This document shows, piece after piece, positions 1 through 32,732 of a DNA stretch of 64,000 bases. The DNA lies in assembly GCA_034002785.1 (NCBI GenBank), contig JAVEZX010000002.1, forward strand, positions 1,526-65,525, written 5' to 3'. Source of the stretch: Bacteroidales bacterium (GTDB taxonomy: Bacteria > Bacteroidota > Bacteroidia > Bacteroidales > VadinHA17). The notes beneath the pieces are model-generated. The model was not told where the DNA came from. It was given only the letters and a program-made list of their open reading frames with translations, and did no database searches. Each line of letters opens with the position of its first letter. Within the stretch, counting starts at the first letter, position 1. Position numbers and translations under genes: made by a program.

Positions 1-665
1 ACCAGTGCGGCCAGTTGCTGCTTCAGCTCCGGGTCAGGCCAGATCCTGTAAAGGGCGGTATATGCCTCAAGGACATGAAGATGAGTGTTCATTGTCTTCT
101 TCTCATTGGCATCCTTCGCGCTCAGGCGCAGGTCAGCGATCTCACCCCACTCACGGGTAAAGGCTTCGAAATAACCGCCACGCTCACGGTCAAAGCTGTA
201 CTTCTCAATCAGCCTGAACAGATCGATTGCCCTGTCAAGCGCCTCCCTGTCGCCCGTGCCCATATGATAAGTACTCAGCGCATAGATGAAAAAGGCCTGA
301 GAGTAGATCTGCTTTTTGGTATCCAGAGGCTCGCCGTTGCTCTTCAGGCACCAGTAAGTGCCGCCGTACTCTTCATCAAAGAAGTGCCGGAAAACGTAAT
401 CGCGGGCCCGCATGGCCATCTCCAGGTAAAGCGGGTCGGGCTTCCAGATATACGCTGCCGCAAAGCTCCACAGGATACGGGCATTCAGTATTCCACCCTT
501 AGGTGCGCCGGGAACGACGTTATCCCTGCCATCTCTCCGACCGTAAAATCCGCCGTTGTCCGGGTCTGGCATCTTCCGTATCCACCAGGGCAGGATATTG
601 CGCGTAAGCTCATCCGCAGCAGCAGCCTTCATCCCTGCGAGTATCATTGCAGCATCTTTTTTCAT
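1..665 (-). CDS. Cellobiose 2-epimerase (AGE / N-acylglucosamine 2-epimerase superfamily); N-terminal ~221 codons, with the 3' end beyond the left window edge
   Basis: Absent from the supplied ORF track because it runs off the window. My translation of the minus strand from the ATG at 665..663 gives MKKDAAMILAGMKAAAADELTRNILPWWIRKMPDPDNGGFYGRRDGRDNVVPGAPKGGILNARILWSFAAAY...EEYGGTYWCLKSNGEPLDTKKQIYSQAFFIYALSTYH...ERGGYFEAFTREW...NTHLHVLEAYTALY. This is colinear with characterised cellobiose 2-epimerases. It lies 46 nt downstream of the GH130 gene, its canonical partner. Confidence 0.85.
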   Translation of the reverse strand, partial: MKKDAAMILAGMKAAAADELTRNILPWWIRKMPDPDNGGFYGRRDGRDNVVPGAPKGGILNARILWSFAAAYIWKPDPLYLEMAMRARDYVFRHFFDEEYGGTYWCLKSNGEPLDTKKQIYSQAFFIYALSTYHMGTGDREALDRAIDLFRLIEKYSFDRERGGYFEAFTREWGEIADLRLSAKDANEKKTMNTHLHVLEAYTALYRIWPDPELKQQLAAL

Positions 666-711
666 CCTTAGAAGGTGAATTTTGCGATAAAGTATCTTTC
701 GGAAGTCACTC

Positions 712-1899
712 TCACTTTTTCCCTGCCATGAACTCCCGGTTGCGACTGATTATTGAGTTGAGTGATCTCACTGATTCCGCAGAGCGAAATCCGTCCGCCG
801 GCGTGTTCATGCAATAATCGATCAGACGTTCAACCGATGACACAGCCACGTGCATCCTTGTATCCGACGATGCGTAATAGATATAGACCGTTCCGTCATC
901 ATCAGCTATCCACCCGTTGGAGAAGAGCACGTTCGAGACGTCGCCGATGCGTTCCTCATCCACCGGGGCCATGAAATAGCCTCCCGGCTCAGCTATAATC
1001 CTGGACGGGTCATCAAGTGCAGTCATGTAGAGGTAGAGCACATACCGCAGCCCCGCGGCGCATCCCCTTACACCGTGGGCAAGATGCAGCCACCCGGCAG
1101 GCGTTTTTATCGGGTGAGGGCCCTCACCGTTCTTCATCTCCTTGATTGTGTGATAGTGCCTGAAGTTGATAATCTTCTCATCCCCCTCAGCTATCACTGC
1201 CCGGGTAATGTCATCAACCAGGGCCCATCCTATCCCTCCTCCGCTGCCGGCATCGATGAAGCCGTCCTGCGGGCGGGTGTAAAGGGCATATCTGCCGTTG
1301 ACGAACTCCGGATGAAGAACAACATTGCGTTGCTGGCTGGCCGAGACCAGGTCAGGCAGGCGTTCCCATGTCACCAGGTCTCTTGTACGGGCAATGCCGG
1401 CAGCGGCGACAGCGGATGAGAGGTCACCGGGAGCAGCTTTCGGATCCTTTCTCTCGCTGCAGAAGACCCCGTAGATCCAGCCATCCTCATGGTGTGTCAG
1501 CCTCATGTCGTACACATTAGTATCCGGATCATCAGTCTCCGGCATAGTTACAGGATAATCCCGGAACCGGAAGCTATCCACACCGTTCTGGCTTTCTGCA
1601 ATAGCGAAAAACGATTTTCTGTCGTAGCCTTCCACCCTTACAGCAAGAATATACTTACCGTTGAACCTCATTGCACCGGCATTGAATGCTGCATTGATGC
1701 CAAAGCGCTCCATCAGGTGCGGGTTGGTGTCCGGGTTGAGGTCATACCTCCATTCAAGCGGTGCATGTGCCCCTGTAAGTACAGGATATGAATACCTGTC
1801 AAATATCCCGTTTCCCGTCCCGGCCTTGATATTGCTGCGCTTAATCAATGCCTCGTGCTCTTCAGTGAGCTTCGCAAGGCGTATTTTGAAATTATCCAT
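712..1899 (-). CDS. 4-O-beta-D-mannosyl-D-glucose phosphorylase (GH130, subfamily-1 type)
   Basis: 395-aa ORF with no signal peptide. It resembles the Bacteroides fragilis-type mannosylglucose phosphorylase end to end as I recall it ([96 protein letters not shown]). It is flanked by a GH26 mannanase and the epimerase. Confidence 0.9.
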
Positions 1900-1912
1900 T
1901 CTGCTTTGCTGA

Positions 1913-3043
1913 TTATTCCTGTTTATAGATTTCCAGTGCCGTCACATCCTTCTGGAAAAGTGATTCGGGCAGATTATAAAAGTCAATGAAGTCCTGTGCG
2001 CTCATATGTCCCGGATGGGGAGCATAGAAGTGTCCCGGTTTGTTGTGGGCATTGCGCCACACAAGTGCATAGGATATGCGGTGATCCCTCATGGCAGGCC
2101 AGAATGTTCCTGTCCACCATGTTGAATCGGGAATTCCTTCGTACCCGGCCTCGGTCAGCGCCGCCAGTTTACCATGAGCGGCAGCTGCTTCGGTGACGAT
2201 ACCCAGCACCCGGTGCACATTATCAGTAAACGACCTGTTGCCTGCTACCGGCATCTGGTAGTAGTCGAATCCCATGAGGTCAACATATTCATCACCCGGG
2301 TAGCGCTCAAGATACTGCTCCGTGCTGCTGATATCGCCACCGCTTGAATAGGCGAAGAGCAGGTTGTGAAGGTTCTTCTCTCCGCAGAGGTACTCGAAGG
2401 TGAATCGCCACAGGGCGATGAACTCTTCTGTTGTGCACAGATCCTGTCCCCACCAGAACCAGCTTCCCGTATGCTCATGCCAGGGGCGGAAAATCACCGG
2501 AATTGCCACACCTTTATCATCCTTCAGTGATGCAATAAATTCAGCCAGGTTATCAAGCCAGGCCCTGAACTCTTCATGTTTCTCCCCTCCGGGCAGCACC
2601 GAAGCCACCACCCTGTCAGAAGTTACATCCCAAGAGCTGCCGCCGGTAAGCGGGTTATCAACATGCCAGCTGAAGGTTATAACGCCTCCGCGTGCCCATA
2701 TCTCACCTGCCCACTTCTTCATGTCACCGAAGGGCACGGAATCGAGGTTAACTGCTGAACGGTGTTCGATATCGCCGAGATCCATGCCGTATACGGCAGG
2801 GAAGTCACCGGTGACCCGTTTTACATCAGACTCACCTCCCGGATGAATCCAACCGATACCGTAAGCCAGGTCATCCTGGTGTCCGAACATAATGCCCTGC
2901 CCGGCAGCATGCTTCAGTCCTGCCAGCATGTTTACTGTCTCAGGGGTAGCCGATCTGTCGGCAGGACCTGTTCTTCCGGCGTCTCCCGTATTGCAGGCTG
3001 TCAAAAACAGCATCGCCACGGTCAGATTGAGTATCCTGTTCAT
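1913..3043 (-). CDS. Endo-beta-1,4-mannanase, GH26, lipoprotein
   Basis: Lipobox (MLFLTAC). GH26 motifs are present: [23 protein letters not shown] (acid/base Glu) and ALTEAGYEG (nucleophile Glu). Confidence 0.85.
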
Positions 3044-3050
3044 GTGAGGG

Positions 3051-4352
3051 TTATTTTTTAGTAAGAGATGAGAGGCGAAGGCTGAAATCAGAAATTATGC
3101 CTACAGTGGAGTCAGTGTCAAACACCGAGTTCAGTCCCTGTTCCTCCTGGGGCGGGTCTCCCAGGTAGTCATCACCGGGAAGCCAGTGGATCCTGCCTTC
3201 AGCAGCCCTTCCCTCTCCGGCGTAGGCCCATATATTGCAACCTGCAAGCGGCCCGAGGCGACCGGCATGGTCAAGCACCTGTCCGAACGCATTGCCGTAA
3301 TAGGTGTCACGGGCCACTGTCGGCTCATCAGGCGAGAATCCGTGAAAATCGCGAGGCAGTCCGAATTCCTCTAGAACTATCGGCTTGTTCAGCCTCTCAG
3401 CCACCTCCAGGTGGTCATTTATATACCTGTTGGTCAGCACAATAGCCGTATCAAGGGTGCCCCCTATATTCCTGATATCCAGCCAGCCCCAGTTTTTCGG
3501 CCATATATGCATAACCAGATAATCGATGTTCGGATCAGCATGGATACGTTCAAAGACCTCCATCTTCTGCTCGCAACCGTGCCGGCCCTCGGTACCGGTT
3601 GTCACCAGGTGGTTTTCATCGAGTTCCTGAAGCAATGCCGCAATGCGGGCAATCATAGCCTCGAATGCCGGGATATTTTCATCCGAGAATGCCCTCGGTT
3701 CATTGGCGATCTCCCATGTCATTATTGCGGGGTCCTCAGTATACTTCAATCCTGTATAACCGTTTGTCCGCCCCACAATGAATCTTATGAACTCCTCGAA
3801 CTGGCTGATGCATGGCTCGCAGCTGTTGAACTGCCCGGAGAAGCTCATGAACTGAGACCAGGTGTTGGGCGCCAGATTGGGATTGGGTATGGGGCCGTAA
3901 CCGTTCCAGCTGAGGTACTGCGAGAATCCCCCGCTCCAGTCCCATGCGTTGTTGAGGAAGAGGATTGCATGCATCCCCCTTTTGCCCATCTCGGCCAGCA
4001 GGAAGTCGAGTCCGGCAAGCATTTCCTCACTGTATTCACCCGGAGCGACCTGCAGCGCCGGAGTAACCCTGTAAGGCTCATTGTCAGGCCCTTCCGGACC
4101 AACCATCACCCTCAGGTTGGTGATACCTATGCTCTTCATATGGTCAAGTTCCCTGAGCAGCCGTCCACGGTCACCATACTCGCCCTCCGTGCCAATGATG
4201 GCCCCGTACCAGTAGTTGGCGCCAATGAAATACAAGGGCTCCCCGGCTAACCGGAAGATCCCGTCTTCAACGATAACATAATTCTGTTCCTGACTGCGGC
4301 CGCAGCCGGAAAGGGCAATCATCAGCAGCAGCCCCGGCAATACTCTTCTCAT
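3051..4352 (-). CDS. GH5 endo-beta-1,4-mannanase-like glycoside hydrolase, lipoprotein
   Basis: Lipobox (ALSGC). GH5 clan-A motifs are present: LFLNNAWDWSGGFSQY, MTWEIANEPR (acid/base) and VLEEFG (nucleophile). First gene of the GH5-GH26-GH130-epimerase string. Confidence 0.75.
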   Translation of the reverse strand: MRRVLPGLLLMIALSGCGRSQEQNYVIVEDGIFRLAGEPLYFIGANYWYGAIIGTEGEYGDRGRLLRELDHMKSIGITNLRVMVGPEGPDNEPYRVTPALQVAPGEYSEEMLAGLDFLLAEMGKRGMHAILFLNNAWDWSGGFSQYLSWNGYGPIPNPNLAPNTWSQFMSFSGQFNSCEPCISQFEEFIRFIVGRTNGYTGLKYTEDPAIMTWEIANEPRAFSDENIPAFEAMIARIAALLQELDENHLVTTGTEGRHGCEQKMEVFERIHADPNIDYLVMHIWPKNWGWLDIRNIGGTLDTAIVLTNRYINDHLEVAERLNKPIVLEEFGLPRDFHGFSPDEPTVARDTYYGNAFGQVLDHAGRLGPLAGCNIWAYAGEGRAAEGRIHWLPGDDYLGDPPQEEQGLNSVFDTDSTVGIISDFSLRLSSLTKK

Positions 4353-4377
4353 AGAATGCGCTTTGTACGATCTATAT

Positions 4378-4651: not shown

Positions 4652-5533
4652 ATGACCGAAAATATCCTGAAAGAGATTACCCCGCTGACCCAGTCAGACT
4701 GCTTTACATATTTCCACCGGGCAAAGTCTGAATTTGATTTCCCCCTTCACTACCATGATGAGATTGAACTCAATTTCATACGAAATGCCAGGGGCGCAAA
4801 GCGAATAATCGGTGATCACGTAGAGGAGATTGGCGATATGGAGCTTGCTCTTGTGGGGCCGGGACTGCCTCACGGCTGGTTCGGATCAGGATTCGGATCT
4901 GACCAGGTGCAGGAGATAACCATTCAGTTTCATAAGGATTTCTTTGACGAGAAATTCCTCCAGAAGAACCAGCTGAACTTTATCCGCAACATGCTGCGCA
5001 GGTCTCTTCGCGGTATACTCTTCTCGCCGGAGACCACAGCCCGTCTGGAGACGCGCATATTAAACCTGGAGAAGAAGCAGGGCTTCGACTCTGTCCTCGA
5101 ACTGATGAGTATCCTTCATGATCTTTCAATATCACGTGATTACCGGGTGTTGTCTGATTCAGGATTCAGCGATGCAGAGGTCTTCTCTTACAACAGCCGG
5201 CGGATAGAGAAGGTGATGGAGTTCATCCACACCTCCTTTGACAGGCAGATCACGCTTGGCGAGGCTGCCAGGATTGCAAGCATGACCGAGTCTGCCTTCA
5301 GCCGCTTCTTCAAGCTGAGGACAGGCATGACCTTCATAGACTGTGTTACGGAGGTGCGCCTGGGGCATGCCTCAAGGATGCTGATCTCAACAACAAAGAC
5401 GATAGCTGAGATTGCCTATTCATGCGGATTCAACAACATATCCAACTTCAACCGTATATTCAGGAGGAAGAAGGGATGCACGCCCAGGGAACTCCGTGAT
5501 AGCTATGATCAGGGGACAAGGGTCTTCATCTGA
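4652..5533 (+). CDS. AraC-family transcriptional regulator (N-terminal cupin sensor + C-terminal double HTH)
   Basis: The cupin-like N-terminus reads FPLHYHDEIELNFIRNARGAKRIIGDHVEEIGDMELALVGPGLPHGW. The C-terminal AraC HTH reads ITLGEAARIASMTESAFSRFFK...IAEIAYSCGFNNISNFNRIFRRKKGCTPRELR. It is divergent from the mannanase operon. Confidence 0.9.
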   Translation: MTENILKEITPLTQSDCFTYFHRAKSEFDFPLHYHDEIELNFIRNARGAKRIIGDHVEEIGDMELALVGPGLPHGWFGSGFGSDQVQEITIQFHKDFFDEKFLQKNQLNFIRNMLRRSLRGILFSPETTARLETRILNLEKKQGFDSVLELMSILHDLSISRDYRVLSDSGFSDAEVFSYNSRRIEKVMEFIHTSFDRQITLGEAARIASMTESAFSRFFKLRTGMTFIDCVTEVRLGHASRMLISTTKTIAEIAYSCGFNNISNFNRIFRRKKGCTPRELRDSYDQGTRVFI

Positions 5534-5634: not shown

Positions 5635-8064
5635 TTATCTTACCCTTAGAGTACAGACAGTGTCAGGCAGGCCGTCTGATGAGGCAGTAATTTTAACCTC
5701 CCCTTTTTCCTTTCCTGCCTTCACAACCACAAGGCACTTCCCGTTGTAAGCTTTCCTGTAGTCAGCCTTGAATGGTTCCATGCTTGTCTGGCTGCCATTG
5801 TCAACACCTGCAATCATACCGGGACCTTCAACGGAAAAGTTCACCATATTACCTGCATGAGGCAAGGTATTTCCGTTACGGTCAATAACAGTAACTGTAA
5901 TAAACGAAAGATCTGCATCGTCTGCATTTATCTCACTGCGGTCAGGCGTCAGCACCAATCCGGCAGGCTCACCGGCTGTGGAAACCGTCTTTCTCATTAT
6001 CTCGGTACCGTTCCTGTAACCGACACCCAGTAAGGTACCCTCTTCAAACGGCACTTTCCAGACAAGGTTATAATCGTTCTCTCCCCTGGTCTGCCTCCCG
6101 AGAGATACGTCGTTAAGGAACAGCTCAACCTCATCACAGTTTGTAAATGCCCACACATCCACCGTCTGACCGGGATTCCAGTTCCAGTGCGGGAAGATAT
6201 GTAGCACATCCTTGTCGGTCCATTCACTCTGGTAGAACCAGTAGACATCTTTCGGGAAGCCGGCCAGATCAATGATGCCGAAATAGGAGCTTCGTGCCGG
6301 CCACCAGTAGGGAGTGGGTTCGCCCAGGTAGTCAAAGCCGGTCCAGATATACATCCCCGTGAGGTAGGCATTCTCCTTTATCAGCCTCCAGCTGTCACGA
6401 TGGGTTGTACCCCACGGTGCCGAGCAGTTGTCATATGCCGAGCATGTCAGGTCCGGATTACCGTCCTTGAAGGGCTGATCCCAGCGTACAGGCCAGCGCC
6501 GGATGATCTCTGACGGCAAATCGTAGCTGCCACGTGTGGCAAGCGCCGAAGTGGTCTCCGTGCCAATATATTTGCCGCCGGGGAACATCTCCGGCAACCT
6601 TGTCCAGAGCGTATCACGGTAATTGAATCCTATGAGATCAAGGGCGCCTGAGGCGATGACCGGGTTGTGCGGCATCGGGTCATTGCATGCCGCCGTCACT
6701 GGCCTGGTATCATCCAGGGAACGGACAATGCCTGCCAGTTCGGTGGCGATGGCTTCACCGCTGCCGTTCCGCTCCCACTGTTCCATCACTTCATTACCGA
6801 TGCTCCAGATGAAAACCGAAGGATGATTGCGGTCGCGAAGCACCATTGCCTCCAGATCCCTCCTGTGCCAATCGTCAAAGTCCAGACCGTAGTCGAATTC
6901 TGTCTTTTTCACCTTCCATATGTCGAAAGCCTCATCCATGACTATGAAGCCCATCCTGTCACACAGATCAAGCAGTTCCGGAGCAGGGGGGTTATGCGAT
7001 GTGCGAATACCGTTGCACCCCATCTCCTTTAGTATCTCCAGCTGCCTCTCAATAGCACGGGTGTTGACTGCAGCACCCAGGCACCCCAGGTCATGATGAT
7101 TGCATACCCCCTTTATGACTACCGGCTCACCGTTGAGGATGAATCCCTTTTCAGCATCAAATTCAAACGACCTGATGCCGGTTACCGTCTCATATACGTC
7201 GGCCAGCAGCTGTCCTGACCGGATCCTGGTTTCAACCCTGTAAAGCTGAGGGTTCTCCACTGACCAGAGCCGGGGAGAATCTATCTTCAGTTCCTGCGTC
7301 ACCGTGGTACCTGCATCAGTAAGCTCAACCTGATCAGTCTCCGCTTTAGCCACTTTCCTGTTTTCAGGATCATAGACCGTTGTCTCAAGTCTTATGCCAG
7401 CCCTGCCCCCGGTGGCGTTACTCACCTGCGTAGTCACTCTCAGGAGGGCAGCTTCGGCTGACACTTCCGGTGTGGTAACAAAGGTACCCCAGTGGTCAAC
7501 AGCAATCTTTCCGGTGATTGTCAGCCAGACATTGCGATAGATACCTGACCCTGAATACCACCTGGAGTTGGGCTGCTTCGAATTGTCAACCTTTACGGCA
7601 ATCACGTTAGCCTCATCACCATAATTGAGCCAAGGCGTCATGTTATACCTGAAGGAACTGTAGCCGTATGGCCTTTTCCCAAGATAGTTCCCGTTAATCC
7701 ATACCTCGCTGTTACGGTAAACACCGTCAAATGAAATGTATGTCAGCTTCTCCCTGTCATCACTGCTGATCCTGAATGTCTTGCGGTACCATCCTATACC
7801 GCCTGGCAGGGCCCCGCCGCCGGGAGAGGCCGGATGATTCTCGCTGAACTCCCCCTCGATGCTCCAGTCGTGCGGCAGATCAAGTTCTCTCCATCCGCTG
7901 TCATCATAACCCGGCTGAAAAGCCTCATCTCCTGCAGTAAGCGAAAACTTCCACCCGTCATTGAAACTGACATGATTTCGCGGCTCAGGCTGTGAACAGC
8001 CTTGAATAACAGCCGCCAACGCGATTGCCATCAGCAATCGTGACACTGTTTGTCTTCCCTCCAT
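5635..8064 (-). CDS. GH2 glycoside hydrolase (beta-galactosidase-like architecture), lipoprotein
   Basis: Lipobox (VIQGC). The GH2 N-terminal sugar-binding region reads FNDGWKF...WRELDLPHDWSIEG. The TIM-barrel motif is NHPSVFIWSIGNEV. The C-terminal Ig-like/DUF4982-type tail reads DLSFITVTVIDRNGN. Confidence 0.8.
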   Translation of the reverse strand: MEGRQTVSRLLMAIALAAVIQGCSQPEPRNHVSFNDGWKFSLTAGDEAFQPGYDDSGWRELDLPHDWSIEGEFSENHPASPGGGALPGGIGWYRKTFRISSDDREKLTYISFDGVYRNSEVWINGNYLGKRPYGYSSFRYNMTPWLNYGDEANVIAVKVDNSKQPNSRWYSGSGIYRNVWLTITGKIAVDHWGTFVTTPEVSAEAALLRVTTQVSNATGGRAGIRLETTVYDPENRKVAKAETDQVELTDAGTTVTQELKIDSPRLWSVENPQLYRVETRIRSGQLLADVYETVTGIRSFEFDAEKGFILNGEPVVIKGVCNHHDLGCLGAAVNTRAIERQLEILKEMGCNGIRTSHNPPAPELLDLCDRMGFIVMDEAFDIWKVKKTEFDYGLDFDDWHRRDLEAMVLRDRNHPSVFIWSIGNEVMEQWERNGSGEAIATELAGIVRSLDDTRPVTAACNDPMPHNPVIASGALDLIGFNYRDTLWTRLPEMFPGGKYIGTETTSALATRGSYDLPSEIIRRWPVRWDQPFKDGNPDLTCSAYDNCSAPWGTTHRDSWRLIKENAYLTGMYIWTGFDYLGEPTPYWWPARSSYFGIIDLAGFPKDVYWFYQSEWTDKDVLHIFPHWNWNPGQTVDVWAFTNCDEVELFLNDVSLGRQTRGENDYNLVWKVPFEEGTLLGVGYRNGTEIMRKTVSTAGEPAGLVLTPDRSEINADDADLSFITVTVIDRNGNTLPHAGNMVNFSVEGPGMIAGVDNGSQTSMEPFKADYRKAYNGKCLVVVKAGKEKGEVKITASSDGLPDTVCTLRVR

Positions 8065-15983: not shown

Positions 15984-16016
15984 ACTAAATTATAAGCTTC
16001 TCTTTTAAAAAATGCA

Positions 16017-16057
16017 AAGGGTATCTCAATTTAGTGATAAAATCCGAGATACCCCTT
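16017..16057 (-). terminator. Intra-locus hairpin plus T-run between the surface-protein genes and the enzyme genes (attenuator/terminator candidate)
   Basis: On the minus strand this reads AAGGGGTATCTC-(18-nt loop)-GAGATACCCTT, followed by TGCATTTTTT. It sits in the 109-nt gap between the stop at 16093 and the next ATG at 15983. Confidence 0.4.
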
Positions 16058-16092
16058 GCGCTGAATTAAATGGATAACCTAATCAATCTCCA

Positions 16093-24268: not shown

Positions 24269-24567
24269 AGCTGTACAGTTTTTAGGTTTTTAAAGTTACA
24301 CCAACTTATCAGGGCGGCATTGATACTATTTTGTCTCATTATTGTAATAATTTGATTAGTACACCCTGGAAAATGTCAAAAACAGGGTCTCAAAGTGTAC
24401 CTTATACACATAGATAATATATATGTATACCGGTATCCCTTCTCACCTGCATGAAAGGACATTCAATCTTTTTTTTCTTTTGTGGTTGATAATAAAATAT
24501 ATTTGAGATACCTTTGAATTCTTACATTGTACACTAAGTCATTTTATCACTTACCTGGTATAATAAA

Positions 24568-25314
24568 ATGATATCTCACAAGATCGTTCCCAACATCTCA
24601 GTCGACTGCGTGATCTTTGGTTTCGACTTTGAAAAGCTGAATGTCCTGCTTGTCGAAAGAGAGATGAAAGACAAAAAAAACGGCGAGATACTGATTAAGG
24701 ACCACACCCTGGCCGGATACCATATCTTCGAGGATGAAGACCTTGACAGTGCAGCTGCCAGGATCCTGAAAGGACTTACCGGACTCGACAATATTTTCCT
24801 TGAACAGTTCGGCGCCTTCGGCCAGCTAGACCGCGTCTCATCACCAAAGGACAAGATGTGGCTCGATTATATCAACAAGGGATTTGCTGACCGCGTTGTC
24901 ACAGTGGGATACCTCGCTCTGATAGACAATACAAAGGTTACCCTCACGCTGAAGGACAGGAATGTGGCATGGTTTCCCGTATCGGCAGTGCAGGAGATGG
25001 AGATGGCATTTGACCACAGATACCTCTTCCACACCGCCCTGGAGGCTCTCCAGCGCAAGGTGAAGGTGGAACCAATCGTATTTGAACTGCTGCCTGATTA
25101 CTTTACGATCTCACAGCTGCAGAAAGTTTACGAGGCAGTGCTTGGAACATCGTTCGACAAGCGTAACTTCAGGAAAAAAGTGGCACAGATGCACTACGTC
25201 ATCCCGTTGCGGAAGAAACAGCAGGGCGTGCCGCACAAACCTGCACAGTTCTATCTCTTCAGCCGGGAGGTGTACGAAAAAACCAGAAAAGGACGCATCT
25301 CTTTCATTATCTGA
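24568..25314 (+). CDS. NrtR/AraR-like transcriptional regulator (degenerate Nudix sensor domain + C-terminal winged helix)
   Basis: The N-terminus ISVDCVIFGFDFEKLNVLLVER is typical of the family. The Nudix-box region reads SAAARILKGLTGL, where a catalytic box would read AAxRELxEETGL, so the catalytic Glu residues are replaced. The C-terminal part reads FTISQLQKVYEAVLGTSFDKRNFRKK. Confidence 0.8.
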   Translation: MISHKIVPNISVDCVIFGFDFEKLNVLLVEREMKDKKNGEILIKDHTLAGYHIFEDEDLDSAAARILKGLTGLDNIFLEQFGAFGQLDRVSSPKDKMWLDYINKGFADRVVTVGYLALIDNTKVTLTLKDRNVAWFPVSAVQEMEMAFDHRYLFHTALEALQRKVKVEPIVFELLPDYFTISQLQKVYEAVLGTSFDKRNFRKKVAQMHYVIPLRKKQQGVPHKPAQFYLFSREVYEKTRKGRISFII

Positions 25315-25342
25315 TATATAACCCATTTAACCAACCATAACC

Positions 25343-27217
25343 ATGAATGTACACTTCATTGACCTGGGCATAGTCATCCTGTACCTTGTGGCCACCATCT
25401 TCATAGGCAACTGGGTGTCAAAGAGAGCTTCGCGAAACATCCAGTCTTACTTCCTCGGGGGCAACACTCTTCCCTGGTACTTCCTTGGCATCTCTAACGC
25501 CTCCGGGATGTTTGATATCGCCGGAACCATGCTGCTCGTCTACTGGCTATCCGTTTACGGCATGAAGAGCCTCTGGATACCCTGGCTCTGGCCTGTCTTC
25601 AACCAGATATTCCTGATGGTCTACCTCTCCGCCTGGCTCAGACGATCCAACGTAATGACAGGCGCAGAGTGGATCAAGACCCGGTTCGGCGACGGGAGGG
25701 CCTCGAACCTGTCCCATGTCATAGTGGTTGTCTTCGCCCTGGTAAGCGTGATAGGCTTCCTCTCCTATGGCTTCAAGGGTATCGGCAAATTCGTGGCGGC
25801 CTTCCTTCCTCCTCTCGTGTCAAATCCCGACTACCTGCTGGCACACCCGCAGATAAATGTCAACCTCTATGCATTGATCCTGATGGCCATAACCACCTTC
25901 TACGTCGTGAAGGGCGGTATGTTCAGCGTGGTGATCACTGAAGTCATCCAGTACGGAATACTCACAATAGCATCAATTGCCGTAGGTATCATCGCCATAA
26001 AACAGGTCTCCCCCGATGCACTCAACTCGGTCATACCTGAAGGATGGAAGAGCCTCTGGTTCGGGAGGACCACGGGTCTCGACTGGCACGCCATCTCCTC
26101 TGTGGGTTCGCCGAAGCTGCACTCGTTCAACGACTGGATAAAAACTGACGGTTATGAGCTCTTCGGCCTCTTCTTCGTTATGATGCTCTTCAAGGGTATC
26201 CTTGTCTCTGCGGCAGGCCCGGCGCCCAACTACGACATGCAGCGCGTCCTTGCCACCAAAAACCCGAAGGAGGCCTCGAAGATGAGCTCGCTGGTGAGCG
26301 TGGTACTCAACCCGACACGTTACTTTATGGTTGCCGGTCTCACAATCCTCGCCCTGGTGAACTTTGACAAGCTATATACCGGCTCACTGACCAATCCCGA
26401 CTTCGAGAGCATCCTGCCCGAAGTGCTGGCGACTTATGTTCCCGTGGGGCTCCTCGGATTCCTTCTCGCCGGTCTTATCGCAGCCTTCATGAGCAACTTC
26501 GCAGCTACGGTGAACGCCGCCCCCGCCTACCTGGTCAATGACATCTACAAGAGATACATCAATCCCAACGCCAGCGAAAAGACATATGTGCGGATGAGCT
26601 ATGCCGCCTCACTCCTTATTGTGGTTGTTGGAATAGTTGTCGGATTCCTGGTGACTTCAATAAATGACGTGGTGCTCTGGATCACTGCAGCCCTCTGGGG
26701 TGGCTACACCGCCCCCAACTTCCTGAAGTGGTACTGGTGGCGATTCAACGGTTACGGTTACTTCTGGGGCATGCTCTCAGGCATCATAGCCGCACTCATC
26801 CTGCCGGCACTGAATATAGGCCTGCTGCAGAACTGGCCGCTGACAGAGAACTTCAGTATGAACGCATTCCCCGTCATCTTCCTCTTCTCACTCATCGGCA
26901 GTATCCTCGGTTCACTCCTTACAAAGAGGGAGGATGACGCTACCCTGAAAAAATTCTACAGGCAGGTCCGCCCCTGGGGATTCTGGAAACCGGTTGAGAG
27001 AATGGTTCTCGCCGAAGATCCTTCATTTAAAGCCAACCGCGACTTCTGGAGGGATATGTTCAACATTGCTGTGGGAATCGTTTGGCAGATATCACTTATG
27101 GCATTCCCTGTGTTCCTGGTGATGAGGGAATGGACCCAGTTCTATGTTGCCGTGGCCGTGATGATCGTTACCACAATCATCCTGAAATTCAGCTGGTGGG
27201 ATAAACTTAAAGACTGA
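25343..27217 (+). CDS. Sodium:solute symporter (SSS) family sugar transporter
   Basis: 624 aa and highly hydrophobic, with about 13-14 predicted TM segments. The N-terminus is typical of the SSS family (LGIVILYLVATIFIGNWVSKRASRNIQSYFLGGNTLPWY). Confidence 0.85.
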   Translation: MNVHFIDLGIVILYLVATIFIGNWVSKRASRNIQSYFLGGNTLPWYFLGISNASGMFDIAGTMLLVYWLSVYGMKSLWIPWLWPVFNQIFLMVYLSAWLRRSNVMTGAEWIKTRFGDGRASNLSHVIVVVFALVSVIGFLSYGFKGIGKFVAAFLPPLVSNPDYLLAHPQINVNLYALILMAITTFYVVKGGMFSVVITEVIQYGILTIASIAVGIIAIKQVSPDALNSVIPEGWKSLWFGRTTGLDWHAISSVGSPKLHSFNDWIKTDGYELFGLFFVMMLFKGILVSAAGPAPNYDMQRVLATKNPKEASKMSSLVSVVLNPTRYFMVAGLTILALVNFDKLYTGSLTNPDFESILPEVLATYVPVGLLGFLLAGLIAAFMSNFAATVNAAPAYLVNDIYKRYINPNASEKTYVRMSYAASLLIVVVGIVVGFLVTSINDVVLWITAALWGGYTAPNFLKWYWWRFNGYGYFWGMLSGIIAALILPALNIGLLQNWPLTENFSMNAFPVIFLFSLIGSILGSLLTKREDDATLKKFYRQVRPWGFWKPVERMVLAEDPSFKANRDFWRDMFNIAVGIVWQISLMAFPVFLVMREWTQFYVAVAVMIVTTIILKFSWWDKLKD

Positions 27218-27225
27218 CTTGAAAC

Positions 27226-29658
27226 ATGAAATTCGGATATTTTGATGACGCTGCAAGAGAGTATGTCATCACACAGTACAAAACGCCATGGCCCTGGATC
27301 AATTACCTGGGCAACAAGGACTTCTTCTCGATAATCTCGAACACCGCAGGAGGCTACAGCTTCTACCGCGATGCCCGGCTCCGTAGGATAACCCGGTACA
27401 GGTACAACAACGTGCCGATGGACGACGGCGGCAAGTACTTTTATATCAATGATAACGGTTCTGTCTGGTCCCCGGGATGGAAACCGGTGAAGACAGATGT
27501 CGAAGACTACTCCTGCCGTCACGGCATGGGCTACACGATGATCGGCTCAGCCAGGGACAGTCTGAGGGCGGACATACTCTACTTCGTTCCGCTGGATGAC
27601 ACCTGCGAGGTGCAGCGCGTCATACTGCGCAATACAGGTACAATGCCGAAGCATATCAAGCTCTTCTCGTTTACCGAGTGGTGCTTCTGGAATGCGCATG
27701 ATGACCAGACCAACTTCCAGCGTAACTTCTCAACCGGTGAGGTGGAGGTGGAGGAGGGTGTCATCTATCACAAGACAGAGTACCGTGAGCGCCGTAACCA
27801 CTATGCATTCCATTCGGTCAACAGCCCTGTGGCTGGCTTCGACACCGACCGTGAGACGTTCCTGGGAATCTATAACGGCTTTGACCGTCCCGAGACTGTC
27901 TTCTCCGGCCGGCCACGAAACAGCATAGCCCACGGATGGTCACCAGTGGCATCGCACTGCCTGGAGACCATCCTGGAGCCGGGCGAGGTGAAGGAATACA
28001 TCTTCGTCCTTGGATATATCGAGAATCCTGACAACGAAAAATTCATCGCTCCGAAGGTGATAAACAAAGTCAGGGCAAAGGCAATGATCGGCAGGTATGA
28101 CACCTCTGAGAAGGTCGATATCGCCTTCGCGAAGCTGAAGGAATACTGGGACAGCCAGCTTTCGGTTATCAGCCTGAACCACCCGGACCCACGCCTCGAG
28201 CGTATGGTCAACACCTGGAACCCCTACCAGTGCATGGCTACATACAACTTCTCACGGAGTACCTCCTATTTCGAATCCGGCATTGGCCGCGGGATGGGGT
28301 TCCGCGACTCTAACCAGGACCTTGTGGGATATGTTCAGATGATCGGCCAGCAATCGCGCGACAGGATCATTGACATTGCCTCAACGCAGTTGAACGACGG
28401 CAGCGCATACCACCAGTACCAGCCTCTGACAAAGAGGGGCAACGCCGAGATAGGCGGCAATTTCAACGATGACCCGCTGTGGCTCATCTTCGGTGTGGCT
28501 GCATACCTCAAGGAGACGGGCGACTGGTCAATACTTGACGAGACGGTGCCGTTCAACAACAACCCGGATGATGCGGCAAGCCTCTTCGAGCACCTGCACC
28601 GTTCCTTCATGCACGTGGTGAACCACCTCGGACCTCACGGCCTGCCGCTGATAGGGCGCGCTGACTGGAACGACTGTCTTAACCTGAACTGCTTCTCATC
28701 AAACCCCGATGAGAGCTTCCAGACAACTGAGAACCAGAAGGGAGGCCAGGCGGAATCACTGTTCATTGCCGCCATGTTCGTGCTCTACGGTGCTGATTTT
28801 GTTACAATTGCCCGTCGCAGGGGCGAGACACAGATGGCAGATGAGGCCACAGATCATATTGATGCTATGGTCCGGGCTGTCAATGAGCACGGCTGGGACG
28901 GCGACTGGTTCCTGCGGGCATACGATTTTTACGGACGCAAGGTTGGCAGTCGTGAAAACGAGGAGGGTAAGATCTTCATTGAATCACAGGGTATGTGTAT
29001 CATGGCTGGTATAGGGCTCGACGACGGCAGGGCGCTGAAGGCGCTGACATCAGTCAATAAGCACCTGGCATGCGAGCACGGCATTGTTCTCAACAACCCC
29101 GCCTTCACGAAGTACTACCTCCACCTGGGTGAAATATCAAGCTACCCTGAAGGATATAAGGAAAACGCCGGCATCTTCTGCCATAACAACCCGTGGATAA
29201 TCATAGCCGAGACACTTGCCGGCAACGGACACAGGGCCTTTGACTACTACAGCAGGATAACACCCTCGTACCTCGAGGATATTAGTGATCTTCACAAGAC
29301 GGAGCCATATGTCTACTCACAGATGATTGCAGGCAAGGATGCCTTTCGTCCCGGTGAGGCAAAGAACAGCTGGCTGACCGGTACGGCCTCATGGTGCTAT
29401 TATGCGATCACACAGTATATCCTGGGCATCAGACCCGATTATGACGGGCTGCTGGTTGATCCGTGCATACCGCCCGACTGGGGAGGATTTACTGTCAGGC
29501 GTAAATTCAGGGGAGCGGTTTACAACATCGAGATCATCAACCCGGAGCACAAGTCCAAGGGTGTCTGGGAGATCACGGTTGACGGAAAGAAAGTCGATTC
29601 GTGCCTACTCCCGGTCTTCGCCGCGGGGACTGAACATGAAGTCAAAATAATAATGTAA
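27226..29658 (+). CDS. GH94 disaccharide phosphorylase (cellobiose-phosphorylase-like)
   Basis: 810 aa with no signal peptide. The hallmark N-terminus is [29 protein letters not shown]. The catalytic-region motif is [12 protein letters not shown]. Also present are [12 protein letters not shown] and SWLTGTASW. The size fits cellobiose/chitobiose phosphorylases rather than cellodextrin phosphorylases. Confidence 0.85.
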
Positions 29659-29662
29659 TATC

Positions 29663-31402
29663 ATGAAAATAAAGAGACTGTTTTTGATCACTGGCGCAGT
29701 AATGATGCTTGCATGCGCAGGTTGCGGCAGCAAGACGCTGATAACGGCCAGGCTTGCAGCCCCCGCTGATACTGATATCATCCTGGTGAACCAGACCGGA
29801 TATCTTCCCGGAGCCGAAAAGGTGGCCCTTCTGAGGACAGACACTGACATTTTCGAGTTGATCGATGCTGTCACCGGGAAAAATGTATTCGGCGCTGAAC
29901 CCGGCGCACCGGTTTTCTGGGAGATGTCGGGCGACACAGTCCGTGCAGCTGATTTTTCAGCTTTTACAACACCCGGCACCTACAGGGTCTGCCTGACAGG
30001 AACCGATATCTGCTCCGCACCCTTCCGCATCGGGGAGGACGTCTACGGCGAGATCACTGCAGCGGCAGTACGCTCTTATTATCTAAACCGCTCCGGCATT
30101 GAGATAACGGAAGTCCATGGCGGTAAATGGGCGCGCCCGGCAGGCCACCCTGATACGGCAGTGATAGTGCATTCCTCAGCCGCCTCAGCCAGACGGCCGG
30201 CAGGTACTGTGATCTCCAGCCCTGGCGGATGGTATGATGCAGGCGACTACAACAAGTACATAGTCAACAGCAGCATCACCAATTATACCCTGCTTCTGTT
30301 CTACCAGATGTTCCCGGAGTATTGCCGGTCGCTTGACCTTAACATCCCTGAAAGCGGTAATGATATTCCTGACCTGGTTGATGAGCTGCTCTGGAACCTG
30401 AGATGGTACCTGACAATGCAGGACCCGGCTGACGGTGGGGTGTACCACAAGCTGACGAACCTGTACTTCTGCGGGTTTGTGATGCCTCTTGAGGCCACCG
30501 ATCCGAGATATGTGGTGATGAAGAGCACCGCCGCCACCCTTGACTTTGCTGCCTTCACTGCCATGGCACACCGCATATTTGCCAGTGACCCGTCAGAGGA
30601 GCTCAGGGCACTGGCCGCCACCTGTCTTGAGGCATCCGGCAAAGCGATGAAATGGGCTGAGGCTCATCCCGATGTGATTTACAAACAGCCTGCGGATGTG
30701 AGCACCGGCGCCTACGGCGATGACAACCTCTCCGACGAGCTCTTCTGGGCTATGGCAGAGAGGGCGCTGGCCACGGGAACTGTTCCGGGGCCGGGCTTCC
30801 TCGACGGTGTGGCAGCAGTAACCCCGACGTGGAACCAGTCGGCAACGCTGGGTCTCATCTCCCTTGCACTCAGCAGTGATGAAGCATTTGCTACAATTCG
30901 CGATGAAGCTGCCGGGATGCTTGTTTCGTATGCTGACGCCCTGCTTGAGAAATCCGGGATGTGCCCCTACCGCATCAGCCTCGACAGGTTTGACTGGGGC
31001 AGCACCTCAGATGTTGCCAACCAGGCCATGATCAAGATCGTTGCAATGAAACTATCGGGCAGCGACAGGTTCCTGCCATCCGTTCAGGCCGACCTGAACT
31101 GGCTGCTTGGAACGAATCCTACAGGGTACTGCTTCGTCACAGGGTTCGGGACCCTTACACCGATGTTTATCCATCACCGTCCATCAGGCGCTGACGGCGT
31201 ACCTGAGCCGGTGCCGGGGTTCCTTGTTGGCGGTCCGAACACAGTTGTAATGAATGACTGTCAACCGCCGGTTGAAAGGTCAACATTTCCTGCGAAGTCA
31301 TACTCTGATGTAGAGTGCAGCTACTCCACAAATGAGATCGCAATAAACTGGAACGCCCCGCTGGTGTTCCTGCTTGGCGCGATGGACAGCATGCGGCAAT
31401 AA
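29663..31402 (+). CDS. GH9 endo-beta-1,4-glucanase with N-terminal Ig-like (CelD_N-type) domain, lipoprotein
   Basis: Lipobox (LACAGC). GH9 motifs are present: GGWYDAGDYNKY, GGVYHKL, IHHRPSGADG, LVGGPN and YSTNEIAINWNAPLVF. Confidence 0.9.
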   Translation: MKIKRLFLITGAVMMLACAGCGSKTLITARLAAPADTDIILVNQTGYLPGAEKVALLRTDTDIFELIDAVTGKNVFGAEPGAPVFWEMSGDTVRAADFSAFTTPGTYRVCLTGTDICSAPFRIGEDVYGEITAAAVRSYYLNRSGIEITEVHGGKWARPAGHPDTAVIVHSSAASARRPAGTVISSPGGWYDAGDYNKYIVNSSITNYTLLLFYQMFPEYCRSLDLNIPESGNDIPDLVDELLWNLRWYLTMQDPADGGVYHKLTNLYFCGFVMPLEATDPRYVVMKSTAATLDFAAFTAMAHRIFASDPSEELRALAATCLEASGKAMKWAEAHPDVIYKQPADVSTGAYGDDNLSDELFWAMAERALATGTVPGPGFLDGVAAVTPTWNQSATLGLISLALSSDEAFATIRDEAAGMLVSYADALLEKSGMCPYRISLDRFDWGSTSDVANQAMIKIVAMKLSGSDRFLPSVQADLNWLLGTNPTGYCFVTGFGTLTPMFIHHRPSGADGVPEPVPGFLVGGPNTVVMNDCQPPVERSTFPAKSYSDVECSYSTNEIAINWNAPLVFLLGAMDSMRQ

Positions 31403-31496
31403 CCTCTGCCGGAGGAGGACATGCTGCCCAACATTTTCTGATTCCCTTCAGAACCGGATCCAAATGCATAACTTAGTGGATCAAAGGAATCATAAG

Positions 31497-32732
31497 ATGA
31501 GCACAAGAAGAACCTTTATCAAACAGGGCGGACTGACTGCAGGAGGTCTTGCAACGGCAACAGCACTGGGAGCAGCCGTGTTGCCGGCGGGGGCCAGTTA
31601 CTCCGGACCCGATGCAGCCGTGTTGCCGGCGGGCGGAAACATTTACCCCGGACCTGGTGCAGCCGATGGCATTAAGATCAGCAAGATGTTTGTTGAACCC
31701 CTCAGCATCGAGATGGATCCTTTCCCGATTGCACTGGGGGTGATGACACATCTTGACAATGCCTTTGTCAGGATCGTCCTCGAGAACGGGGTTGAAGGAT
31801 ATGGTGAGGCCGCTCCGATAATGACAATCAGCGGCGAGAATCAGCAGACAATTCTCGGAACTATAAACAGCTGCCGGGAATTCATTGTAGGTCAGGATAT
31901 AAACAACTACAGGGCAATCTCATACACGCTGAAAAGTGCATTCTGGGCACAAGCGACAGCCCGGTGCGCCATCGAGATGGCTCTGCTTGATGCATACACA
32001 AAAACCCTGAAGATCCCCTTCAGCCGTTTTCTTGGGGGAACGGAAACAAGGGTCGAGACCGATTACACAATCGCTATTGTGCCTGCCGACCAGGCGAAGA
32101 AGGAAGCTATCCATCTTGCAGCTGAAGGATACAGGGTGATAAAGACAAAGGTGGGTACCAGTCTGAAAGAGGATGTTGACAGGGTTCTGGCAATAAGGGA
32201 CGGCGCCCCTGACTGCGGAATACTCATTGATGCCAACCAGGGTTATTCGCCGAAAACGGCTCTCCGTTTCATCAATGAAGTGGTCGGTCATGGCATTTAC
32301 CCGGTGATGTTTGAGCAGCCTGTACACAAGAATGACCTTGCCGGGATGAAGTATGTACGTGACAATACCGAGATCCTCGTAGGTGCGGACGAGTCGGTCT
32401 TCACACGTGCTGATGCCATCAACATTGTACGGACCGGTTGTGCTGATGCAATCAACATCAAGCTGATGAAGTCATGCATAATTGAGGCGCTGGATATAGC
32501 CGCCATCGCACGCAGCGCCAACCTGAAGCTCATGATCGGCTGTATGGTTGAGACCAGCCTGGCGCTGGGGTGTGCGGTTCATTTTGCTGCCGGTGTGGGA
32601 GGGTTTGAATTCGTTGATCTCGACCCGTCGTTTGATATCTCGGAGTGTCCGGTCAGCGGCGGACCTGTTTACAAGGCCCCATTCTGGACCATTGGCCCGG
32701 AACCGGGGCTGGGGTTTGCATCCAGAAAATAG
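31497..32732 (+). CDS. Enolase-superfamily (MLE subgroup, dipeptide-epimerase-like) protein with a twin-arginine (Tat) signal peptide
   Basis: I chose the start at MSTRRTFIKQGGLTAGGLATATALGA (Tat motif S/T-R-R-x-F-[IL]-K) rather than the track's 31374, which overlaps the GH9 3' end. Catalytic scaffold: VIKTKVG (KxK), LIDANQGY, MFEQPV, LVGADES, INIKLMK and FVDLDPSF (DxD). Confidence 0.75.
   Translation: MSTRRTFIKQGGLTAGGLATATALGAAVLPAGASYSGPDAAVLPAGGNIYPGPGAADGIKISKMFVEPLSIEMDPFPIALGVMTHLDNAFVRIVLENGVEGYGEAAPIMTISGENQQTILGTINSCREFIVGQDINNYRAISYTLKSAFWAQATARCAIEMALLDAYTKTLKIPFSRFLGGTETRVETDYTIAIVPADQAKKEAIHLAAEGYRVIKTKVGTSLKEDVDRVLAIRDGAPDCGILIDANQGYSPKTALRFINEVVGHGIYPVMFEQPVHKNDLAGMKYVRDNTEILVGADESVFTRADAINIVRTGCADAINIKLMKSCIIEALDIAAIARSANLKLMIGCMVETSLALGCAVHFAAGVGGFEFVDLDPSFDISECPVSGGPVYKAPFWTIGPEPGLGFASRK

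Follow-up and report, generated by a model that had tools for sequence, protein, structure and literature searches.

The polysaccharide utilization locus (PUL) described here lies between positions 1 and 31402 of a 64-kb stretch of contig JAVEZX010000002.1, termed the window, from an uncultured Bacteroidales bacterium that is probably anaerobic. Its closest described counterparts are systems that degrade mannans and xyloglucan. In Segatella copri, PUL7/PUL8 encode a SusC/D pair, a bimodular GH26|GH5_4 enzyme, a periplasmic GH26A, CE7, GH5_7, GH130 and EpiA (PNAS 2025, PMC12704710). The bimodular enzyme cleaves glucomannan, xyloglucan, arabinoxylan and mixed-linkage glucan, CE7 was shown to deacetylate glucomannan, GH130 is a Man-Glc phosphorylase and EpiA interconverts cellobiose with Glc-Man and mannobiose with Man-Glc; neighbouring GH5_4 enzymes are active on xyloglucan. 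A GH94 encoded outside the PULs is induced by glucomannan and, the genome being without β-glucosidase, the authors propose that it acts on cellobiose and Glc-Man (PMC12704710). Mannan PULs of rumen and gut Prevotella contain CE7, GH26, GH130, an epimerase and a GPH transporter (PMC6784887). Comparison with these systems and with the loci of relatives suggests that region 1-31402 is probably one composite hemicellulose locus, in which a (gluco)mannan PUL core would be combined with integrated xyloglucan side-chain enzymes and with a module for cellobiose uptake and phosphorolysis.

Composition and conservation of the locus

Gene families were assigned by Pfam, NCBIfam and Protein Data Bank (PDB) searches (Table 1). 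The open reading frame (ORF) map reproduced 18 of 18 ORFs at the coordinates and on the strands given in an earlier note on this DNA; the gene content claimed there is real, and its family labels hold for nearly all genes in profile and structure-database searches. Unit a (minus strand, 24268 down to 5635) encodes SusC, SusD, two lipoproteins resembling surface glycan-binding proteins (SGBPs), a CBM35-GH26-X enzyme, where X is a domain described below, GH31, CE7 and GH2. Unit b (minus strand, 4352 down to 1) comprises a GH5_7-like enzyme, GH26, GH130_1 and an EpiA-type epimerase, with an AraC gene divergent from it, and unit c (plus strand, 24568-31402) comprises a Nudix regulator, an SSS symporter, GH94 and GH9. 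The arrangement is that of a PUL, with susC and susD adjacent to one another and co-oriented with genes for carbohydrate-active enzymes (eight downstream genes on the same strand). Within this single same-strand run the GH26 mannanase and CE7 genes are interleaved with GH31 and GH2. The other ~31 kb of the window carries housekeeping genes.

The core of the locus is identified as a mannan PUL because SusC, SusD and the AraC regulator are closest to those of Chitinophagaceae mannan loci. SusC is 59-63% identical to its counterparts in these loci and ~35% identical to SusC of xyloglucan loci, the corresponding values for SusD are 63-66% and ~31%, and AraC homologues of 63-64% identity adjoin SusC in the same mannan loci. 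Judged by these identities, the SusC/D pair is orthologous to mannan-locus pairs and not to xyloglucan-locus pairs. The genes for side-chain removal have different affinities. GH31 matches the xyloglucan α-xylosidase BoGH31A best, followed by PDB entry 7KMP (969 bits) and CjXyl31A (885 bits), GH2 is of the GalB type and GH9 is most like BoGH9A, so that the likeness to the Bacteroides ovatus xyloglucan toolkit (GH31-PA14, GH2 and GH9) drawn in the earlier note is borne out by similarity. GH2 and GH31 point to xyloglucan because they are of β-galactosidase and α-xylosidase type. For the same reason, and since the window holds no α-galactosidase, the galacto part of the (acetylated galacto)glucomannan named earlier as substrate does not stand. 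A single decorated polymer such as β-galactoglucomannan was considered as sole substrate and is not supported, there being no α-galactosidase and the GH31 being firmly α-xylosidase-like.

Conservation was assessed in relatives' loci, numbered L001-L090. An X-alignment scan of one genome per GTDB species gave 80 loci, and a tblastn neighbour census covered 84, these 80 plus four others, of which two are duplicates of loci from the scan. The nearest X loci belong to uncultured Bacteroidales metagenome-assembled genomes (MAGs), with identities reaching 92% in the segment that aligns best. Across the 84 loci, the genes adjoining X encode GH31 (41 loci), GH26 (35), GH2 (31), CE7 (27), GH130 (15), SSS (15), epimerase (14) and GH9 (12). 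The norm in the window's clade is SusC-SusD-SGBP-SGBP-[CBM35-GH26-X]-GH31-CE7-GH2, then AraC, then GH5_7-GH26-GH130, and more than 10 species-level genomes of Bacteroidales share the gene order of the window. The set Nudix regulator-SSS-GH94(-GH9) is found divergent from SusC at 96%, 78% and 71% GH94 identity; the regulator keeps its place next to SSS-GH94 down to 71-74% GH94 identity and lies beside SusC in seven further genomes. Even in L088/L089 (GH94 71%, X 62%) the entire three-unit architecture is kept, in the order GH94-SSS-NrtR, SusC SusD SGBP X GH31 GH2, AraC, GH5_7 GH26 GH130. Because the layout persists to about 62-71% protein identity in many genomes, the clustering is not chance adjacency, and the union of three modules in one locus, as the earlier note had it, is evolutionarily stable.

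The mannan-type SusC/D and AraC also agree with an alternative in which the locus is a glucomannan PUL of a single substrate. GH31, GH2, GH9 and the SGBPs with a xyloglucan-binding domain (XBD) would then be passengers, or would deal with xyloglucan fragments that a promiscuous secreted enzyme releases as contaminants, and GH94 would serve only the Glc-Glc and Glc-Man of glucomannan. Two GH26, GH5_7, CE7, GH130_1, epimerase and SSS do make up a complete glucomannan route, as in S. copri, and the window contains neither a β-glucosidase nor a classical endo-xyloglucanase. Several points weigh against a composite locus. The xyloglucan route looks incomplete: Pfam searches across the 64 kb found no GH1 or GH3, as the earlier note had also read from the letters, so the window offers no β-glucosidase that could act in alternation with GH31 on XXXG-type oligosaccharides, although GH1/GH3 genes may lie elsewhere in the genome, as the search covered the window. 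No recognised vanguard endo-xyloglucanase domain (GH5_4 or GH74) occurs in the window either, where the only candidates for that role are X and GH9, and X itself might be a debranching enzyme. The α-galactosidase expected for galactoglucomannan is missing from the window, import of xyloglucan oligosaccharides is not assured with a mannan-type SusC/D, and the candidate Nudix operator described below is limited to the susC/regulator spacer, so that the units may respond to different signals. Passenger status is nevertheless hard to reconcile with the retention of GH31 and GH2 across the whole Bacteroidales clade and with GH31 beside X in 41 of 84 loci. The closeness of GH31 to BoGH31A (1058 bits) and of GH9 to BoGH9A, together with an SGBP-B XBD in both SGBPs, likewise argues against a single substrate, which we regard as unlikely.

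Table 1. Features of the proposed composite locus and its surroundings in the window (positions in nucleotides of the 64-kb stretch).
Feature	Position	Strand	Basis or remark
Cellobiose/mannobiose 2-epimerase, EpiA type, 5' part	1..665	-	NCBIfam celb_epim_EpiA 234 bits over the 221 aa present
GH130_1 4-O-β-D-mannosyl-D-glucose phosphorylase	712..1899	-	659.5 bits, full length, to B. fragilis BfMGP 3WAS
GH26 lipoprotein, BoMan26A/CjMan26C-like, 376 aa, predicted periplasmic	1913..3043	-	403 bits to 4ZXO; lipobox
GH5_7-like exo-β-mannosidase lipoprotein	3051..4352	-	352 bits to Man5A 1UUQ; 259 bits to exo-β-1,4-mannosidase 4LYP
AraC-family regulator, divergent from GH5_7-GH26-GH130-epimerase operon	4652..5533	+	Pfam HTH_18/HTH_AraC
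GH2 β-galactosidase lipoprotein	5635..8064	-	NCBIfam GalB 949 bits (cutoff 900); 699 bits to β-galactosidase 7CWD
CE7 acetyl esterase, 286-aa N-terminal β-sandwich-like extension	8080..9816	-	Pfam AXE1 218 bits
GH31 α-xylosidase lipoprotein, PA14 insert	9846..12701	-	1058 bits to BoGH31A 5JOU
Secreted bimodular enzyme CBM35-GH26-X-T9SS	12705..15983	-	Pfam CBM_35, GH26, Por_Secre_tail
T9SS C-terminal sorting domain of bimodular enzyme	12714-12929	-	Pfam Por_Secre_tail
X domain, clan GH-A-like (β/α)8 barrel + β-sandwich	13002..14567	-	residues ~473-994 of bimodular enzyme; AF2 model
GH26 endo-mannanase domain of bimodular enzyme	14607-15500	-	306 bits to 3ZM8
CBM35 of bimodular enzyme	15549-15908	-	Pfam CBM_35
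Conserved terminator-like hairpin, U-rich tail	16014..16059	-	inverted repeat; RNA fold -31.2 kcal/mol, z = -4.5
SGBP-like surface lipoprotein (SGBP2), TIG repeats + C-terminal SGBP-B XBD-like domain	16093..18225	-	TIG 74 bits, SGBP_B_XBD 31 bits
SGBP-B-like surface lipoprotein	18249..19478	-	Pfam SGBP_B_XBD 164 bits; lipobox
SusD-like lipoprotein	19484..21091	-	Pfam SusD_RagB + SusD-like_3
SusC-like TonB-dependent transporter	21110..24268	-	TIGR04056 863 bits; Pfam CarboxypepD_reg + Plug only
Candidate operator GTGTA-N5-TACAC, shared susC/regulator spacer	24395..24409	.	arms invariant in 9/9 orthologous intergenic regions
Bacteroidota-type -7 box TACCTTTG	24509-24516	+	conserved in orthologues; 5' of regulator-SSS-GH94-GH9 operon
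Conserved box TTGTACACTAAG	24527-24538	+	11 nt downstream of -7 box; exactly one match
Nudix-like NrtR/AraR-family transcription factor	24568..25314	+	Pfam NrtR_WHD, AraR_C, NUDIX
SSS-family sodium/solute symporter	25343..27217	+	Pfam SSF
GH94 cellobiose phosphorylase	27226..29658	+	1288 bits, residues 1-810, to C. thermocellum CtCBP 3QDE
GH9 lipoprotein, CelD_N Ig-like domain, BoGH9A-like	29663..31402	+	420 bits to BoGH9A 6DHT; lipobox
MR/MLE (enolase-superfamily) protein, dipeptide-epimerase-like	31497-32732	+	L-Ala-D/L-Glu epimerase best, 318 bits

The X domain of the secreted bimodular enzyme

The most original part of the locus is the uncharacterised X domain of the enzyme exported by the type IX secretion system (T9SS). 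The earlier note had recorded the protein as CBM-GH26-X, and the domain is indeed present, but that X is a second catalytic domain, the hallmark of this type of locus, had been missed. The AlphaFold (AF2) model of X (pLDDT 87, pTM 0.91) displays a (β/α)8 barrel followed by a β-sandwich, and the predicted catalytic residues are Glu664 (FWEIGNE) and Glu796 (LTEYN), both invariant in 57 of 57 sequences. Foldseek revealed that the best PDB matches are GH51, GH79 and GH44 enzymes (TM of 0.6-0.7 and 11-18% identity). The match to the GH51 fold has E = 2e-26 with a TM of only 0.63-0.68 and ~17% identity, and at the sequence level a faint PDB match to GH51 covers the catalytic region (E = 0.007). No Pfam or NCBIfam model for X was found, and Pfam Alpha-L-AF_C and Cellulase gave no match even at E<=5. 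X has in common with these clan GH-A families the barrel with C-terminal β-sandwich as well as an NE acid/base and a TE nucleophile at the expected strands. It differs in its low identity, in matching none of their family hidden Markov models and in a context of β-1,4-glucan/mannan backbones rather than arabinofuranosides or glucuronides. Compared by motif only, X and EngU (GH148) have the nucleophile motif (V/L)TEYN in common; EngU is GH42-like with a CBM4 insertion (PMC5725463).

At least 3736 X homologues were identified, mostly stand-alone T9SS proteins of ~640 residues, and they occur in both mannan and xyloglucan loci across Bacteroidota; the CBM35-GH26-X fusion is maintained in close relatives. 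The mannan loci of Chitinophagaceae take the form SusC-SusD-(GH5_7)-GH26-SSS-GH130-epimerase-X, some with a CE. A Pedobacter xyloglucan PUL (L056) comprises GH31, SusC/D, an SGBP with XBD, X, GH2, a GH74-like BNR protein, GH9 and GH95, and a Terrimonas glucomannan PUL (L077) comprises SusC/D, GH26, SSS, GH130, epimerase, X, GH3, CE2 and GH9, so that GH9 co-occurs with X in loci of either type. In a neighbour-joining tree of X, mannan-context and xyloglucan-context clades are resolved within Chitinophagaceae, and the Bacteroidales "hybrid" clade stands on its own branch; the tree does not assign the window's clade to either context.

Because both polymers share a glucose-containing β-1,4 backbone, we infer that X and GH9 cut β-1,4-glucosidic bonds. 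X would cleave the backbone at glucose and so be a functional counterpart of the GH5_4 half of the S. copri GH26|GH5_4 enzyme. Literature searches returned no characterised member of the X family. A wider proposal, possible but tentative, is that X represents an uncharacterised glycoside hydrolase family or subfamily with more than 3,700 members, which would serve as the shared vanguard of glucomannan and xyloglucan PULs in environmental Bacteroidota. Fused to GH26 and with both debranching toolkits placed behind one mannan-type SusC/D, it would make the locus a dual-substrate PUL that phosphorolyses all four Glc/Man disaccharides.

The resemblance to GH51 permits another assignment, in which X is a GH51-type exo-α-L-arabinofuranosidase or another debranching enzyme, and GH26 and GH9 provide all endo-activity. 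The best structural matches are GH51 arabinofuranosidases and the faint sequence match lies over the catalytic region. The B. ovatus xyloglucan utilization locus (XyGUL) carries arabinofuranosidases for arabino-xyloglucan. RefSeq, moreover, names the X homologue of Pedobacter (WP_207429161.1; L056, 9857-11599) "alpha-L-arabinofuranosidase", a label that tells against glucan cleavage by X, although it looks like an annotation transferred on the strength of a very distant similarity to GH51 and may be mistaken for X proteins in general. The low identity and TM values and the failure of Alpha-L-AF_C to match speak against debranching, as do the nearly equal scores of GH79 and of GH44 glucanase/xyloglucanase folds. 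X is also T9SS-secreted and fused to an endo-mannanase and a CBM, and it occurs in Chitinophagaceae mannan operons, on whose substrate arabinofuranose is not known. Finally, GH51 itself includes endoglucanases, the dbCAN subfamily GH51_3 being cited as endo-β-1,4-glucanase (PMC13386854). A debranching role for X is thus considered rather unlikely.

Predicted disaccharide uptake, phosphorolysis and regulation

Both phosphorylases of the locus are well defined by similarity. GH130 aligns over its full length with BfMGP and matches a second solved mannosylglucose phosphorylase (5AY9) with 544 bits, in comparison with <=101 bits for other GH130 enzymes, which places it in subfamily GH130_1 and upholds its earlier designation as mannosylglucose phosphorylase. 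GH94 matches CgCBP with 1162 bits and, as predicted before, is of cellobiose phosphorylase type by sequence, since chitobiose (460 bits), cellobionate (156 bits to 4ZLE), cellodextrin (~86 bits) and laminaribiose (49 bits) phosphorylases all score far lower. Neither protein has a signal peptide, and both are predicted to be cytoplasmic. The unit-b GH26 matches CjMan26C with 267 bits as well as 4ZXO, which we take to be B. ovatus BoMan26A; it contains the catalytic motifs RPWHE and LTE, and by its relatedness to these two enzymes it is predicted to be of the mannobiose-releasing type. Both GH26 domains of the locus retain the RPxHE and (S/T)E motifs. The GH5_7-like protein itself has no Pfam match at E<0.001; Pfam GH5_mannosidase is found in its orthologues.

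The epimerase gene starts at 665 and runs off the edge of the window. Its full-length orthologue in a 98%-identical relative (L090) has 397 residues and a match to Pfam GlcNAc_2-epim; its gene closes the GH5_7-GH26-GH130-epimerase operon, beyond which lie unrelated genes. Unit b therefore encodes no inner-membrane transporter, either in the window or after the epimerase in L090, and would depend on the SSS symporter of unit c, the sole inner-membrane sugar transporter found in the locus. In Chitinophagaceae mannan loci, homologues of this symporter (43-47% identity) are flanked by GH26 and GH130. The lone symporter is the strongest argument for functional wiring of units b and c. Just past the epimerase, L090 (13916-21188) encodes restriction-modification/defence-type proteins (an MmeI-type methyltransferase, a PLD/helicase protein and a ScoMcrA-like protein), so on its left side the locus borders a variable defence island.

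From homology and context, the following route may be proposed. Outside the cell, the T9SS-secreted CBM35-GH26-X enzyme would cut β-1,4 Man/Glc backbones, GH26 at mannose and X at glucose, and the two SGBP-B-like lipoproteins together with SusD would capture the oligosaccharides for import by SusC. In the periplasm, CE7 would remove acetyl groups, GH2 and GH31 would strip Gal and Xyl from xyloglucan fragments, and the BoMan26A-like GH26, GH5_7 and GH9 would trim the chains to disaccharides. The single SSS symporter, whose cargo is deduced from the neighbours of its homologues, would move Man-Man, Man-Glc, Glc-Glc and Glc-Man into the cytoplasm. There the epimerase would interconvert Man-Man with Man-Glc and Glc-Man with Glc-Glc, GH130_1 would yield Man-1-P and Glc, and GH94 would yield Glc-1-P and Glc (or Man). 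Phosphorolysis would save ATP, which plausibly matters more to an anaerobe, and no β-glucosidase would be needed for these four disaccharides. In the Terrimonas glucomannan PUL, GH3 takes the place that GH94 has in the window's lineage, as would fit a β-glucosidase replaced by phosphorolysis. The funnel of epimerase, GH130 and GH94 imagined in the earlier note is plausible, and synteny and the single transporter have strengthened it; its novelty did not survive, as it was proposed for S. copri in 2025.

The modules might instead be three independent neighbours without shared wiring, namely an AraC mannobiose operon, a xyloglucan/mannan SusC/D PUL and a Nudix cellobiose (cellodextrin) operon for cellulose-derived sugars. 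In favour of this, the NrtR-SSS-GH94 trio of one genome (L087) stands alone with no X-type PUL near it, the locus has two unlike regulators, and GTGTA-N5-TACAC, the candidate Nudix operator, has no second copy upstream of unit b. Separate mannan and xyloglucan PULs are described for Segatella bryantii (PMC11107044). Independence is, however, at odds with the conservation of adjacency and orientation from 96% to 71% GH94 identity, with the missing transporter of unit b, with SSS homologues embedded in mannan operons elsewhere and with the single footprinted intergenic region shared by susC and the regulator. It is judged distinctly unlikely, and a composite locus remains the preferred interpretation.

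This intergenic region was analysed by phylogenetic footprinting of nine orthologous susC/regulator spacers, which revealed the candidate operator of Table 1. As one match to GTGTA-N5-TACAC occurs in the 64 kb and ~0.8 are expected by chance, the weight of the palindrome rests on its conservation. Boxes of the form TAnnTTTG are rare (24 occurrences in the window), and one lies at 4385(-), 33 nt 5' of the GH5_7 start. Scans of the window for sigma-70 promoters and intrinsic terminators were set aside, as shuffled sequence gave similar counts; the search for the Bacteroidota TAnnTTTG box was more informative. The regulator matches its closest characterised relative, the NrtR-family repressor BtAraR (5BS6) of Bacteroides thetaiotaomicron, with 133 bits over residues 10-241, its full length. 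BtAraR responds to L-arabinose, is released by the sugar and has SusC/D systems in its regulon (PMC4666351), so that Nudix control of SusC/D systems is not without precedent. The two proteins share a Nudix-like effector domain, a winged helix and a gene position beside catabolic genes. They differ in that the regulator described here belongs to another branch (roughly 40% identity by eye), with cellobiose, mannobiose and xylose as candidate effectors and an operator that is only predicted. By inference from gene position and homology, the AraR/NrtR-type Nudix repressor would act on the shared spacer and control the divergent susC and SSS-GH94 promoters, and AraC would control the mannan operon. 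As the earlier note had stated, the usual HTCS (hybrid two-component system), SusR or ECF (extracytoplasmic function)/anti-sigma sensors are absent across the 64 kb, where AraC and Nudix/NrtR are the only regulators, and Pfam finds no STN domain in SusC. A related locus (L003) has an HTCS.

Within unit a, a hairpin with a 13-15-bp stem divides the genes for SusC, SusD and the SGBPs from those for the enzymes. The hairpin recurs in 15 orthologous spacers, and L026 shows a compensatory change; it is likely a partial terminator or RNA-stability element that would set the ratio of SusC/D/SGBP to enzymes. The three-unit layout described earlier is conserved, but in view of this hairpin three transcription units is a minimum. 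In the more distant loci L055 and L063 another hairpin occupies its position. L001, L008-L011 and L025 combine the same enzyme set (X 64-79% identical) with a different SusC/D (37-41%/28% identical to the window's pair), which is 54-58% related to that of L045, L055 and L063 (labelled Prolixibacter / Prolixibacteraceae MAGs); from these identities the SusC/D pair appears to have been swapped inside an otherwise conserved locus.

Other features of unit a concern gene structure. SGBP2 probably starts at 18225, where an internal Met precedes a lipobox. CE7 matches a cephalosporin-C deacetylase/AXE with 183 bits, and its residues 24-164 resemble residues 236-364, an internal domain, of 7KMM, a Xanthomonas esterase with the annotation sialic acid-specific 9-O-acetylesterase; judged by this resemblance, the N-terminal domain may be common to hemicellulose acetyl esterases. 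In a related MAG (L004, 14814-18914) gene calling joins CE7 and GH2 into one fusion protein of 1366 aa, and in L001, L002 and L086 the GH31, GH26-X and SusC genes are split in places, probably by assembly frameshifts.

The right end of the locus lies at 31402, for an extent of ~31 kb rather than the ~33 kb (to 32732) first proposed, because the syntenic loci L086 and L088 lack the MR/MLE gene that lies downstream of GH9; this gene is present in a 96% relative (L085). The enolase-family protein, counted earlier as a locus member, has its plausible start near 31497, followed by an apparent twin-arginine (Tat) signal MSTRRTFIKQGG, and is a dipeptide-epimerase homologue, its matches to gluconate dehydratase (64 bits) and to mannonate dehydratase being weak. 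A periplasmic dipeptide epimerase would be unusual. As this gene lies close to the GH94 operon, with GH9 between it and GH94, a cellobionate route (cellobionic acid phosphorylase followed by gluconate dehydratase) linked to oxidative cellulose breakdown was considered. It is extremely improbable and effectively refuted, since GH94 is cellobiose-type (1288 against 156 bits) and MR/MLE is dipeptide-epimerase-like (318 against 64 bits), carries a Tat signal and is not syntenic. Farther downstream, among the housekeeping genes, a DUF2264 protein (684 aa, 39608-41662, plus strand) and a BACON_2-domain protein (547 aa, 45929-47572, plus strand) might be glycan-related.

Comparison with described systems

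Should the composite arrangement hold, physical linkage would support the completion of glucomannan breakdown by GH130 and GH94 without a β-glucosidase in Bacteroidota, so far speculated for S. copri. The SSS symporter would become a named candidate for the disaccharide importer, and, for two hemicelluloses found together in plant walls, the "one PUL, one glycan" rule could be relaxed at the level of the operon. The X family, large, widespread, secreted and without a recognised family model, stands at the entry of mannan and xyloglucan loci and is a target for enzyme discovery. The current understanding of PULs is not overturned, and to a PUL specialist the composition is unsurprising in outline; of specialist interest are the X family and the joining, at operon level, of two hemicellulose toolkits with a single SusC/D of mannan type.

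With the B. ovatus XyGUL the locus shares GH31, GH9, a GH2 β-galactosidase, SGBP-B-type domains and SusC/D. In contrast to XyGUL, it lacks a GH5_4 vanguard, GH3 β-glucosidases, GH43 arabinofuranosidases and an HTCS, its SusC/D is not orthologous to xyloglucan-type pairs (~35/31%) and mannan enzymes are interleaved with the debranching genes. With the mannobiose route of Bacteroides fragilis and Ruminococcus albus it shares a GH26 mannanase, GH130_1 and epimerase, and with the transporter all elements of that route are present in the locus. The transporter differs, being an SSS symporter in the neighbouring GH94 operon and not a GPH/MFS symporter in the mannan operon, and the pathway forms part of a SusC/D PUL that includes T9SS secretion. 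R. albus also has a cellobiose phosphorylase, and thus both sugar-1-phosphate-forming enzymes in one organism.

The likeness to S. copri PUL7/PUL8 extends to SusC/D, to a surface or secreted bimodular enzyme composed of an N-terminal GH26 and a second clan GH-A domain, to periplasmic GH26, GH5_7 and CE7, to cytoplasmic GH130 and EpiA, to xyloglucan-active enzymes nearby and to GH94. The second domain is, however, the Pfam-less X and not GH5_4, and the enzyme is T9SS-secreted with a CBM35, whereas that of S. copri is lipid-anchored. GH94 is physically linked with the Nudix regulator, SSS and GH9, in contrast to the unlinked GH94 of S. copri, GH31 and GH2 lie inside the susC gene run, and there is no inactive GH26B. 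The earlier note was aware of no characterised Bacteroidota PUL with such dual-phosphorylase wiring, which holds in part: the idea has been published for S. copri (PMC12704710), and literature searches found no characterised PUL combining GH31, GH26, GH130 and GH94. Relative to S. copri, the novelty is confined to two features: GH94 is physically linked, and the merger with xyloglucan debranching genes takes place at the level of the operon.

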